Source: a phage. From it: a stretch of DNA of 23,076 bases. The notes under the pieces are model-generated. The model searched no databases, was not told the DNA's origin, and was given only the letters and a program-made list of their open reading frames with translations. The stretch lies in assembly GCA_025289735.1 (NCBI GenBank), contig GCA_025289735.1_4764.2. One strand, written 5' to 3'. Position 1 is the stretch's first letter. Every line of letters starts with the position of its first letter. A program made the translations under genes and the position numbers. Shown here in pieces: positions 10,641 through 20,322 of this stretch.

Positions 10641-10669
10641 TTGACAACATGAAACGGGGGTAGTAAGAT
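10641..10669 (+). promoter_or_regulatory. early promoter module copy 2 (TTGACA-17-TAAGAT) with inverted repeat over the -10
   Basis: TTGACA 10641-10646; GGGGGTA (10656-10662) / TACCCCC (10669-10675) inverted repeat flanks the -10; leader CAAACGAAAGGAG. Near-identical to the module at 19448. Confidence 0.65.
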
Positions 10670-10700
10670 ACCCCCACAAACAAACGAAAGGAGAATCAAA

Positions 10701-12453: not shown

Positions 12454-12482
12454 TTGACAGGGGAGGATAACTCCCCTACAAT
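12454..12482 (+). promoter_or_regulatory. early promoter module copy 4 (TTGACA-17-TACAAT) with spacer palindrome
   Basis: TTGACA 12454-12459, TACAAT 12477-12482; GGGGAG/CTCCCC inverted repeat (12460-12476) in the spacer; leader ATCAACGAAACGGGAGG. Confidence 0.65.
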
Positions 12483-17705: not shown

Positions 17706-17738
17706 AAGCCAATCCGAAAGGGTTGGCTTTATTTTTAT
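17706..17738 (+). terminator. rho-independent terminator after the grcA-like gene
   Basis: AGCCAATCC-GAAA-GGGTTGGCT followed by TTATTTTTAT. Confidence 0.75.
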
Positions 17739-17746
17739 GAGGTGAT

Positions 17747-18277
17747 ATGATGATTAAAAGATATTGTGATGACCATCCGGTCGAAGAGTGGAAAGTGATT
17801 GAGGATCTTTATCCGTTAACTCATTTTGAGATTAGTTCTCATGGTAGGGTTAGAAACTCCATAACAGGAAAATACTTGTCTATTGTAGACACGAAAGATT
17901 ATACTAAAGTTTCTTTTAAACATCGCCCCAGCAAAACACATAGAACGTTAAACATGCATAGAATGATGGCGGTTGCGTTTATTCCGAATCCAAACAACTA
18001 CCGTGTAGTTAACCATAAGGACGGAAACAAACGAAACTATGATCTTTATAATCTTGAATGGACTACAGACACACGAAATCTTGTTCATGCAAAGGAAGAA
18101 GGATTAAACAAAAATTGGGGCGAGAACCACGGAAACGCAAAACTAACAGATGAACAGGTGAAAGAGATTTTAGATTCTCCGCATATGAAGGGCGTAGAGC
18201 TTGCAAGAAAATATAATGTTTCACCGTCTGCTATTTGTCAGATTCGAAAAGGCGTTCGACGTAACGTAAAATACTAA
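17747..18277 (+). CDS. HNH homing endonuclease (NUMOD4-like N-terminus, HNH_3 core, C-terminal HTH)
   Basis: HFEISSHGRVRN (NUMOD4-like); HRMMAVAFIPNP..VNHKDGNKRNYDLYNLEW (HNH); NAKLTDEQVKEI...ARKYNVSPSAICQIRKG (DNA-binding). Confidence 0.8.
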   Translation: MMIKRYCDDHPVEEWKVIEDLYPLTHFEISSHGRVRNSITGKYLSIVDTKDYTKVSFKHRPSKTHRTLNMHRMMAVAFIPNPNNYRVVNHKDGNKRNYDLYNLEWTTDTRNLVHAKEEGLNKNWGENHGNAKLTDEQVKEILDSPHMKGVELARKYNVSPSAICQIRKGVRRNVKY

Positions 18278-18290
18278 TGAGGGTTTAATT

Positions 18291-18989
18291 ATGCATACAA
18301 TGGTTAAAATGGTCTTCGGATCTCACTTGTACGGCCTTGATACTGAAAATTCAGATAAAGATTATCGTGGTATCTTTGTTCCGACTGCTAAAGAAATTAT
18401 CTTAGGATCGATGAAAGAACACTATGACCAAAGCACTAGCGGTCAAGGTATCAAGAACACCAAAGACGATATTGATGTTAATATGTTCAGTCTAAAACGG
18501 TTTATCAATCTGGCATGTAAAGGCGATATCGGCGCTATTGACATGGTGCACGCGCCTAGTAACATGTTGATTGAATCCTCCAGAGAATGGGAATACATCC
18601 GAACACATCGCGATAAATTCTATCATGTTGGGATGTGGGGTTTGTCTGGCTATCTCAAAAAGCAGGTAGCCAAATCTGAAAAGTATTTCAGTAACTGGAA
18701 AGATCTTTCTCATGCTCTGCGTGTTGGTTATCAGCTACTTGAAATCTATCAGACAGGTGATCTACAATTCCCGCTCGCGCGACGTTCTTCTATTTTAGCG
18801 TGTAAGTTAGGAGAAAGAACCTTTGATAATGTGCGGGAAGAATTGAAAGATCTCTACGAGCGTGTTAAACTCGCGCGTGAAGAGGCAAAGAAAAACGGTA
18901 TGCCGGAAGAACCAGATGTTGACTTTTGGAAAGATTTATTAGAATATATTCATCTGACCGTTGTTCTGGAACACTATACCCGTGGTTAG
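18291..18989 (+). CDS. Pol-beta superfamily nucleotidyltransferase (RlaP/YcgL-like), function unknown
   Basis: 232 aa; N-terminal VFGSHLYGLDTENSDKDYRGIF fits the hG[GS]-x(9-13)-DxD nucleotidyltransferase signature. Confidence 0.6.
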   Translation: MHTMVKMVFGSHLYGLDTENSDKDYRGIFVPTAKEIILGSMKEHYDQSTSGQGIKNTKDDIDVNMFSLKRFINLACKGDIGAIDMVHAPSNMLIESSREWEYIRTHRDKFYHVGMWGLSGYLKKQVAKSEKYFSNWKDLSHALRVGYQLLEIYQTGDLQFPLARRSSILACKLGERTFDNVREELKDLYERVKLAREEAKKNGMPEEPDVDFWKDLLEYIHLTVVLEHYTRG

Positions 18990-19010
18990 TTAATATAGGA
19001 GATTAAGAAA

Positions 19011-19205
19011 ATGAAAGTTTATACCAATAGCAATAAAGGACAAGATATTACGCCAGGAAAGATGTATGATTTTACCCCGACACGAGACTACGAAAATCCA
19101 CCGACAATCGGTTACATCAAAGATGATATAGGTTATCGTATTACGATCCTTCTTGATGGTGGATGTTCTCATCTTCGCGGTGATAAATGGGAGTTAGTAC
19201 CATGA
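19011..19205 (+). CDS. small protein, paralog family member A (64 aa)
   Basis: Shares Y.(F/Y)TP...GYI.DD.G..I.I.L...C.HL.G..W.L with the next two ORFs. Confidence 0.6.
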   Translation: MKVYTNSNKGQDITPGKMYDFTPTRDYENPPTIGYIKDDIGYRITILLDGGCSHLRGDKWELVP

Positions 19206-19447
19206 TGTATGTGATGACACCTTATAGTAACCGCAAGTATATTACACCAAATACACTGTATGAATATACACCACATGAAAGATTTTCGAATAGTGGTTAT
19301 ATCCGTGATGATAAGGGACACCAGATTTTTATTTGTCTTAAAAATTGTGCACACTTAGACGGTCGAACCTGGACACTGATCGAAGAACCAAAACAACCTG
19401 AGAATAAAGGTCTTTGGAATGTGCTAAAAAAATTCTTGAAAAAGTAG
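19202..19447 (+). CDS. small protein, paralog family member B (81 aa)
   Basis: ATG 19202 overlapping the upstream stop; motif ITPNTLYEYTP...GYIRDDKGHQIFICLKNCAHLDGRTW. Confidence 0.6.
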   Translation: MMYVMTPYSNRKYITPNTLYEYTPHERFSNSGYIRDDKGHQIFICLKNCAHLDGRTWTLIEEPKQPENKGLWNVLKKFLKK

Positions 19448-19476
19448 TTGACAGCATGAAACGGGGGTAGTAATAT
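19448..19476 (+). promoter_or_regulatory. early promoter module copy 6 (TTGACA-17-TAATAT) with inverted repeat over the -10
   Basis: TTGACA 19448-19453; GGGGGTA/TACCCCC inverted repeat (19463-19482); leader ATCGAAACAACAAAGGAG. Near-identical to copy 2. Confidence 0.65.
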
Positions 19477-19507
19477 ACCCCCATCGAAACAACAAAGGAG
19501 TATTAAA

Positions 19508-19843
19508 ATGAGTGTTAAAGAAGTGTTTGTTTATACCGACTATGACGGGTGCGCCTATCTCACTGCTGGAAAACTTTACCGTTGTGAGATTATTCATGGT
19601 ACGCTAGGTCGAATTATGTGCGATCCTATTACAAAATTGTGGAAAAATAATCCTAGTGAGCGAGAAACTCTTATTAACCTAGATCCAGACGGTTGTTCAC
19701 ACTTGGGCTATAGAAAATGGCATATAGTTACACATGATGCTTATGGTATTCATCTTGCTACTAAAGAATTAACTATTGACAAGTTCAAGTTTAAAGAAAT
19801 CCCGTTTGTATACTGGCTTCGCAATTTGTTTAAGAAAGGATAA
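19508..19843 (+). CDS. small protein, paralog family member C (111 aa)
   Basis: Contains DPDGCSHLGYRKWHIV, matching the C.HL.G..W motif of the two upstream paralogs, with an extended C-terminus. Confidence 0.6.
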   Translation: MSVKEVFVYTDYDGCAYLTAGKLYRCEIIHGTLGRIMCDPITKLWKNNPSERETLINLDPDGCSHLGYRKWHIVTHDAYGIHLATKELTIDKFKFKEIPFVYWLRNLFKKG

Positions 19844-19847
19844 TAAA

Positions 19848-20270
19848 ATGGAAACAATTAACGTACATGTTCGCCGTAGTAAGCTGCGTAGATTCTTCGA
19901 AACCGAAATGCGCAAAACCAATGCGCAGATCAAAGAAAAGTGTTTGAATGATGGTTATGGTGAGTATATTTTCATTCGCTTTAGTCCGCATATGATCGAC
20001 CGTCTAACCGATCGTCATATCGATGAACATAAGACAATGGAACTATTCAATAAGATAGAAACTCGTTTGCCAGAGATCTTCGACTTCCTGAAAATGGAAG
20101 ACCGACCGAATCGATTAGAAATTACTGACGGTAACATGTGGATCGGGATGACAGTAGATCTAATCGAAGAGGGTAAGCCATATCACGGTCTATGCTGCCG
20201 AATGATTATAGAGAATCCAAAACGACTGGCGGGTAAAATGTCGGCGGTTGTTTTGAAGGTAGACCAATAA
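19848..20270 (+). CDS. regB: RegB sequence-specific endoribonuclease
   Basis: 140 aa from ATG 19848 (the track start 19776 is over-extended). Similar to T4 RegB as recalled: V.IRR.KLRR.FE.E.R..N..I.E, RLEITDGN.W.G.TV, CRM.I.N..RL.GK.S..V.K. Confidence 0.8.
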   Translation: METINVHVRRSKLRRFFETEMRKTNAQIKEKCLNDGYGEYIFIRFSPHMIDRLTDRHIDEHKTMELFNKIETRLPEIFDFLKMEDRPNRLEITDGNMWIGMTVDLIEEGKPYHGLCCRMIIENPKRLAGKMSAVVLKVDQ

Positions 20271-20293
20271 TGGAAATTGGTTAAAAATAATGC

Positions 20294-20322
20294 TTGACTT
20301 TCTGGTGATAGGGCTATATTAT
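20294..20322 (+). promoter_or_regulatory. sigma70-like promoter (TTGACT-17-TATTAT)
   Basis: TTGACT 20294-20299, TATTAT 20317-20322, upstream of the signal-peptide lytic transglycosylase gene. An overlapping TGCTTGA resembles a MotA box but its spacing is off. Confidence 0.45.

Follow-up and report, generated by a model that had tools for sequence, protein, structure and literature searches.

Three tandem small genes upstream of regB in a Krischvirus-type phage are diverged members of one phage family with a predicted small beta-barrel fold

PeSL-ORFan cassettes, which pair ORFan genes with elements of the promoter-early stem-loop (PeSL) class, have been described in phages RB49 and phi1, and PeSLs were shown experimentally to act as promoter and terminator in both (Arbiol et al. 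2010, PMC2839356); that paper makes no mention of regB, nrdC.11 or ORF095/096. A second point of reference is Gp54 of the Escherichia phage Bas11, which is sensed by, and activates, CapRel-SJ46 (PMC11578894). Here we analysed a window of 23,076 nucleotides (by which we mean the whole stretch of phage DNA under study; NCBI GenBank assembly GCA_025289735.1, contig GCA_025289735.1_4764.2), in which three consecutive small open reading frames (ORF1, ORF2 and ORF3, henceforth referred to as the trio) lie in the early, hyperplastic region, with nrdC.11 upstream and regB downstream. On sequence similarity the window is assigned to Krischvirus (RB49/JSE/phi1-like T-even coliphages, Straboviridae): positions 18291-20300 match 59 phage records, all of them Krischvirus (RB49, phi1, JSE, GEC-3S and relatives), at 90-99.4% identity, the closest record being vB_EcoM_G2494. 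Like the described cassettes, ORF3 is preceded by a typical PeSL followed by a Shine-Dalgarno sequence and a start codon; unlike them, the locus has a single PeSL beside ORF3 and none between ORF3 and regB, and is not a two-PeSL excisable cassette (mini-circle). We read the trio, with a probability of roughly 0.55, as early-made small binding modules, that is, old members of one protein family kept side by side with different specificities and with alleles swapped by recombination.

The gene order at the locus is vs.6, (a homing endonuclease), nrdC.11, the trio, regB, vs.1, vs and tk.4. T4 differs in that its slot between vs.6 and regB holds three unrelated small helical proteins (vs.5, vs.4 and vs.3), and a profile hidden Markov model (HMM) of the family described below gave no match to T4 positions 50000-68000 (best E 1.6). 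In the T4 sequence (NC_000866; our locus L022, 12801-13558), vs.3, vs.4 and vs.5 stand where Krischvirus has nrdC.11 and the trio, and the T4 nrdC.11 gene, which is about 100 residues longer, is found elsewhere, beside mobD. The slot is a hyperplastic position, and its occupants differ between genera. An earlier model-made note on this DNA (the original prediction) had placed three ORFs of 64, 81 and 111 amino acids at 19011-19843, and the ORF list contains all three:

ORF1, 19011..19205, plus strand: 64 amino acids, the minimal single-domain copy; ortholog of RB49p097 and phi1 ORF097.
ORF2, 19202..19447, plus strand: 81 amino acids, a domain at residues 1-62 and a tail ending in a predicted cationic amphipathic helix; ortholog of RB49p096 and phi1 ORF096.
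ORF3, 19508..19843, plus strand: 111 amino acids, a domain at about residues 5-77 with a loop insertion of about 10 residues, a linker and a predicted C-terminal amphipathic helix; ortholog of RB49p095 and phi1 ORF095.

The original prediction regarded the three proteins as diverged paralogs and proposed that a shared motif without statistical significance would count against this. By BLASTP, ORF1 and ORF2 align with 40% identity across 63 amino acids (E 1e-13) and ORF1 and ORF3 with E 1e-4; between ORF2 and ORF3 just two short pieces are found (E ~0.01). The kinship of the trio is secured by the family profiles, since all three proteins match phrog_6261 (ORF1, 1e-27; ORF2, 5e-6; ORF3, 2e-37) as well as a leave-out family HMM built from 87 members that are each less than 45% identical to the trio (E at Z = 1e6 of 2e-21 for ORF2, 3e-18 for ORF1 and 1e-11 for ORF3). 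ORF2 further matches phrog_15978 with E 2e-58. Sequence comparison therefore indicates, well above chance, that ORF1, ORF2 and ORF3 are true paralogs or homologs. The pattern originally written for the trio, Y.(F/Y)TP...GYI.DD.G..I.I.L...C.HL.G..W.L, describes ORF1 and ORF2 accurately; ORF3 retains Y-x-T-x-G-K-x-Y, I-x-L, C-x-H-L and W, and lacks both the 'TP' and the 'GYI.DD.G' elements, with an insertion of about 10 residues in the place of the latter. In terms of the family core, T-x-G-K-x-Y ... I-x-D-D-x-G ... I-x-L ... C/S-x-H-L-x-G-x-x-W, ORF1 and ORF2 are entire and ORF3 has all parts except D-D-x-G, which the loop insertion replaces. A fourth copy of the domain was looked for in the window and not found, and the search for nucleotide-level repeats between the copies gave one weak 23-nucleotide match at the gene starts and nothing more.

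To determine how far the family extends, we searched 1.84 billion cluster representatives (clusters at 50% identity) exhaustively with HMMER. The 363 proteins returned at E<=1e-3, of which 22 reach E<=1e-10, include a few long repetitive proteins that are spurious repeat matches (for example P0017). The typical member has 58-75 residues and the consensus MKVKTDY.GC.YLTAGKVYE...G.I.DD.G...I.L..CAHL.G..WEVVE. A single domain is present in 211 of the 214 retrieved proteins with a domain match, the remaining three (P0020, P0025 and P0030) carrying two or three in tandem, and of 25 longer proteins with a single domain, 23 have it at the N-terminus. Vibrio phages carry homologs, as do metagenomic contigs with diverse phage genes (Mu-type portal, Terminase_3/Sf6 terminase, phage-type RNA polymerase), where the homologs always sit among small unannotated genes. 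Searching by tblastn with the family consensus recovered only 19 Vibrio phages and is too insensitive to map the distribution across cultured phages; a search of IMG/VR for related loci with P0023 or P0021 found nothing. Distant members match both phrog_6261 and phrog_15978, and the two entries are one domain family that includes multi-domain and fused proteins; the functions of the PHROG entries matched by the trio are listed as unknown. No Pfam match at E<=1 was obtained for ORF1, ORF2 or ORF3, the family has no Pfam or NCBIfam model, and the NCBIfam search gave ORF3 only chance-level FosA matches (17-19 bits against cutoffs of >=180). The Pfam entry DUF6501 (PF20111) is matched weakly by 9 of 98 family members (best E 0.0011) and by none of the trio at E<=1. 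A Pfam scan of 20 longer homologs for fused partners returned only sub-threshold DUF3704, Tad2-like and Nup54 segments, of which the Tad2-like anti-Thoeris segment belongs to the distant homolog P0119 (E 8e-4, 20.4 bits against a cutoff of 25). One further protein, P0016 (ENA, 111 amino acids), joins the first 28 residues of ORF3 to an MraZ-family (PF02381) body and is most likely a metagenome assembly chimera.

The fold of the domain was modelled with AlphaFold2. From a 74-sequence alignment, ORF1 gave a small beta-barrel with a mean predicted local distance difference test score (pLDDT) of 95.8, with strands at residues 2-4, ~19-23, 33-37, 43-47 and 61-63 and a short helix at 52-54. The model of ORF3 (pLDDT 72.7) has a good N-terminal domain that includes the loop insertion, a poorly defined stretch at residues 85-100 and a helix at 101-108. 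We therefore confidently predict a beta-barrel fold for this phage-specific domain of about 60 residues, one that is probably five-stranded and SH3/Tudor-like. Foldseek found nothing significant in the PDB, the weak matches being SH3 and Tudor barrels, and only uncharacterised phage proteins in BFVD; the scores against known barrels (the SH3 domains of Grb2, Nck and p40phox and the Tudor domain of 53BP1) are too low to claim homology. Nor does the trio match any SH3 profile or carry the ALYDY, WW or P-x-N-Y peptide-binding residues of SH3 families, and SH3- or Tudor-type models gave only isolated, weak, single-member matches among 98 family members. Gp54 of Bas11 (PDB 9AXB) is likewise a small barrel in a phage protein, with a likeness at the level of the fold, 6% identity, and no recovery by a profile search of PDB sequences; the best result of that search, which gave nothing meaningful, was a short piece of archaeal RNA polymerase subunit N (E 0.07). 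In the ORF1 model, C-x-H-L-x-G-x-x-W coincides with the short helix and the final strand, and the conserved residues of the domain are K17, Y19, D39, H54 and W60. The motif is thus predicted by the model to be a part of the scaffold and not a catalytic or metal site. As its conservation extends over at least 363 clusters from metagenome contigs and from diverse phages, Vibrio phages among them, it appears to be structural and not a variable interface.

We next consider how the trio varies. The whole trio is found in one piece and in the same gene order in all 59 Krischvirus records, at 89.6-99.5% nucleotide identity. Copy-number variation, for which the original prediction had suggested a search, was not seen among these 59 isolate genomes, all of which keep the three copies. 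For orthologs extracted from 13 Krischvirus genomes, the proportion of variable amino-acid sites and the ratio of nonsynonymous to synonymous polymorphism (pN/pS) were 19% and 0.25 for ORF1, 41% and 0.30 (domain) for ORF2 and 13% and 0.12 (domain) for ORF3, compared to 4-6% and 0.04-0.10 for the flanking genes nrdC.11, regB and vs.1. Amino-acid turnover in the trio is thus three to eight times that of its flanks. The variable sites of ORF1 (2, 11, 24, 26, 27, 29, 37, 40, 42, 48, 51 and 59) are mostly located between predicted strands or at strand ends, and across 14 closely related genomes six sites show at least three states. ORF3 keeps 95-99% amino-acid identity in all 59 records. Because pN/pS is 0.12-0.30, each gene is preceded by a GGAG-type ribosome-binding site at the usual distance, and the trio is kept in 59/59 genomes, the three ORFs are, as judged from sequence, genuine protein-coding genes under purifying selection.

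The variation in ORF2 takes the form of two allele classes, one in the window, RB49 and phi1 and the other (class B, which reads CAYL in the core motif) in JK32, Skers, E26, W115, Brandy, SSG23 and PHB13. Between the domains of the two classes the nonsynonymous divergence (dN) is 0.21 and the synonymous divergence (dS) is 1.2, whereas dS in the flanks of the same genomes is 0.12-0.20, and sliding identity falls sharply only across the middle of ORF1 and the core of ORF2. The excess of dS over the flanks points to an exchange of old alleles more than to fast change in situ; old alleles moved by recombination under purifying selection would fit the pattern better than recent or classical positive selection. 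Gene-wide positive selection was not found, pN/pS being below 1 in every gene and segment tested. A divergent, uncultured Krischvirus-like lineage (L018-L020) has the same synteny with trio genes of 64, 80 and 100 amino acids, and its proteins are 90-93% identical to those of the window in the flanks as opposed to 75% for ORF1, 56% for ORF2 and 38% for ORF3. Its ORF3 (L018 4299-4601, also in L019 and L020), of 100 amino acids, carries the domain without the loop insertion. The locus is thus a local hot spot of divergence compared with its surroundings, with 13-41% variable sites against 4-6% within the genus and 75/56/38% against 90-93% identity in the divergent lineage. A metagenomic scaffold from ENA (ERZ16268176 scaffold_28569; L017, 45-296) carries an in-frame fusion of the N-terminal half of ORF1 to the C-terminal half of a class-B ORF2, with ORF3 and regB coming immediately after it. 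The crossover is within the GGTTACATCAAAGATGAT stretch, 18 nucleotides common to ORF1 and ORF2, and the 28 nucleotides upstream of the fusion differ from the end of nrdC.11. As a single observation, this could be a two-copy variant or an assembly artefact. The ORF2 copy of JSE (L001 6912-7181) has 89 amino acids, with altered C-terminal residues and a lost stop, and its frame reads on into the PeSL region.

Local duplication followed by rapid divergence had been proposed as the origin of all three copies. In BLAST and column-bootstrap rank tests on 105 family members and 65 columns, a data set of limited resolution, the ORF2 group ranks about 8th among the relatives of ORF1. For ORF3, ORF1 and ORF2 rank about 36th (median 36 of 105), and ORF3 ranks about 76th for ORF1. 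Local duplication is therefore plausible for ORF1 and ORF2, which may have arisen in this way, being adjacent, translationally coupled and fairly near to each other in the family. It is not supported for ORF3, which is as far from ORF1 and ORF2 as from homologs in unrelated phages and which, on these rankings, would be either very old or separately acquired.

Two of the three proteins extend beyond the domain, ORF1 being the bare domain without a tail:

ORF2 residues 71-81, 19412..19444, plus strand: LWNVLKKFLKK, predicted C-terminal amphipathic helix, charge +4, hydrophobic moment 0.74.
ORF3 residues 100-110, 19805..19837, plus strand: FVYWLRNLFKK, predicted C-terminal amphipathic helix, charge +3, hydrophobic moment 0.65.

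In a shuffle test the moment of the tail was reached in 73 of 5000 cases for ORF2 and 356 of 5000 for ORF3, and similar tails are present in the relatives P0023 and P0026. The tails resemble the membrane-targeting helices of MinD and FtsA in being C-terminal, cationic and strongly amphipathic, the FtsA tail having a hydrophobic moment of 0.78; the likeness is one of analogy only, and the ORF2 and ORF3 tails could equally bind protein. The last 19 residues of ORF3 (SKFKFKEIPFVYWLRNLFK) are identical in the L018 lineage despite 38% identity overall and an N-terminal domain that is far more diverged, and strong constraint therefore appears to act on the tail, or else on the DNA immediately before regB.

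These results can be combined in the following way. The trio proteins would be small binding modules produced early in infection, the barrel of each docking on a host or phage macromolecule through variable loops; in ORF2 and ORF3 the C-terminal helix would tether the barrel to a partner or to the inner membrane. As old family members, the three copies would be retained together with differing specificities. Amino-acid change would collect in the segments predicted to lie between strands, and recombination within the hyperplastic region would swap whole alleles. Two observations weigh against this reading: no recurring gene neighbours were found for the homologs in other phages, and signals for regB, whose start is 4 nucleotides downstream, could be what keeps the ORF3 tail conserved. 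A bolder version, which we offer tentatively and think doubtful, is that phages widely use the barrel of about 60 residues as a novel 'docking' domain, in host takeover or in counter-defence, of which the Krischviruses would carry one soluble and two membrane-tethered versions with different targets and recombined loop alleles; if this is true, characterising the barrel would establish a Pfam-level family that is new, numbers hundreds of members and has a function. In kind the trio is ordinary, a set of ORFan paralogs in a T-even hyperplastic region from an uncharacterised but catalogued family, and is not a new kind of system. The new details are how far the family extends, its predicted fold, the two allele classes of ORF2, the amphipathic tails of ORF2 and ORF3 and a corrected 'endoribonuclease' label on ORF3 orthologs. 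Three 'hypothetical proteins' of every RB49-like therapeutic or model coliphage examined are now tied to one domain family of at least 363 clusters with no curated model, at a locus that is a hot spot of recombination and divergence. Small early T-even genes are a main reservoir of host-takeover and anti-defence functions, and the trio is a cheap and concrete experimental target, with genes of 64-111 codons, allele classes that occur in nature and a naturally occurring fusion variant with two copies (L017, possibly an assembly artefact).

The original prediction saw in the trio the signature of an arms race, and the corresponding alternative is that the proteins are inhibitors, each copy neutralising a different host target or defence variant, with duplication and fast divergence widening the range. 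The high amino-acid turnover relative to the flanks, the multi-state sites of ORF1, the two allele classes of ORF2 and the replaced ORF3 domain of the sister lineage all speak for such proteins, as do the position in an early hyperplastic region with many accessory ORFans (PMC2839356), the sub-threshold fusion of P0119 to a Tad2-like anti-Thoeris domain and the similarity of the barrel to Bas11 Gp54, which is sensed by CapRel (PMC11578894). However, pN/pS or omega (dN/dS) is below 1 throughout, the two ORF2 classes differ by a dS that is saturated when set against the flanks (1.2 against 0.12-0.2), which indicates old alleles, the core motif is conserved in at least 363 clusters, copy number does not vary in 59 isolates, and ORF3 is 95-99% conserved across the genus. 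The links to defence are themselves sub-threshold (Tad2) or at fold level only (Gp54, 6% identity), and no family member matches a known anti-defence family (for example Tad2), the trio being without any Pfam match. The arms-race signature is thus not upheld, and we consider inhibitors of variable host targets unlikely; the binding modules with old, exchanged alleles described above remain our preferred reading.

The third copy had also been said to have its own promoter module, and this is real. The module and the genes on either side of the trio are as follows:

nrdC.11, 18291..18989, plus strand: RlaP-type nucleotidyltransferase, upstream flank (JSE and RB49 annotations; Pfam RlaP on the L018 ortholog).
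PeSL module before ORF3, 19448..19507, plus strand: sigma-70-type early promoter TTGACA-17 nt-TAATAT, G5/C5 hairpin and AGGAG Shine-Dalgarno sequence at 19496-19500.
regB, 19848..20270, plus strand: endoribonuclease, downstream flank (record annotations; Pfam REGB_T4 on orthologs).

The promoter and the hairpin (GGGGGTA/TACCCCC) occupy 19448-19482, with the hairpin, which folds at -15.1 kcal/mol (z -2.66), overlapping the -10 box (TAATAT, 19471-19476). A PeSL pattern search found 2 copies in the window where 0 were expected, a promoter scan agrees for the ORF3 copy, and two further strict copies lie at 10641 and 12454. The PeSL-type modules at those places (TTGACA promoter and polyG/polyC hairpin; 10641-10675 and 12454-12476, plus strand) include, in the first, one with a single mismatch in 35 positions to that of ORF3. 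No PeSL or promoter of their own was found for ORF1 and ORF2, which probably ride on the nrdC.11 transcript. From their arrangement the two also appear to be translationally coupled, the start ATG of ORF2 (19202) overlapping the stop of ORF1 as ATGA; their GGAG sites are at 18998-19001 (ORF1) and 19190-19193 (ORF2), and an alternative upstream ATG at 19187 would give an ORF2 of 86 amino acids. A search of Rfam found no structured RNA in the region. With 4 nucleotides between the stop of ORF3 and the start of regB, regB is apparently co-transcribed with ORF3 from the PeSL.

This arrangement bears on a further alternative, that the trio are nucleic-acid-binding (KOW/Tudor/Sm-like) barrels which modulate RegB cleavage or the nrdC.11 nucleotidyltransferase at the early-to-middle switch. 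Small SH3-like barrels often bind RNA, the order nrdC.11-trio-regB is kept in all Krischvirus records and in L018-L020, ORF3 shares its apparent transcript with regB, and the ribosome sites of the trio carry GGAG, which a note in the RB49 record gives as the RegB target motif. Since the linkage is limited to the genus Krischvirus, with T4 having regB but unrelated helical proteins in the slot and the homologs in other phages not linked to regB or RlaP, we regard an RNA-linked role with RegB as improbable; moreover, ORF3 does not resemble RegB in sequence, and the KOW, Sm and S1 families gave no sequence match. Of the two readings that are largely excluded, the first, in which the trio is neutral cargo of PeSL-mediated shuffling without meaningful function, can point to an ORFan-rich hyperplastic region with a PeSL in which T4 manages with unrelated genes, but is very improbable given the purifying selection on all three genes (pN/pS 0.12-0.30), their retention in 59 genomes and a divergent lineage, and a family whose core is strongly conserved over at least 363 clusters. 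The second, in which C-x-H is a zinc or other metal site of small metalloproteins or metal-bridged dimers, draws on a Cys and a His two residues apart in all three copies and most family members and on the additional Cys and His of ORF3, and is scarcely credible because ORF1 offers one Cys and one His in all where three or four ligands are needed, Cys becomes Ser in several members (SIH, SAH, SSH), His gives way to Tyr in class-B ORF2 and to Phe or Gln in other members, and the motif forms the short helix before the last strand in the model.

Annotation of the trio is sparse. ORF1 is a hypothetical protein in every Krischvirus record inspected, and the locus tags RB49p097/096/095 and phi1 ORF097/096/095 as well as phrog_6261 were not found in the searchable literature. 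The orthologs of ORF3 are labelled 'endoribonuclease (RegB)' in MK962753 (JK32), MW748999 (Skers), MK327932 (G2248) and MT478991 (011D4). A relationship of ORF3 to RegB was rejected, as BLASTP against RegB gives no alignment and there is no Pfam REGB_T4 match, and the label looks like spill-over from the adjoining gene.

Upstream of the locus, a homing-endonuclease ORF of 176 amino acids (17747-18277, plus strand) separates vs.6 from nrdC.11. JSE has this insertion annotated as well, an HNH endonuclease takes its position in JK32, and the insertion is missing there in G2494, RB49, phi1, Skers, E26, W115, Brandy, SSG23, PHB13, Makalu_001 and UPWr_E1. Just upstream of this ORF, the window has a terminator-like hairpin at 17706-17751 on the plus strand (AAGCCAATCC...GGTTGGCTT, followed by a T-run), which overlaps a promoter-like site, TTGGCT-17 nt-TATGAT, with an extended -10 TG. 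The element is possibly a PeSL of a non-polyG type and is the likely source of the nrdC.11-ORF1-ORF2 transcript.

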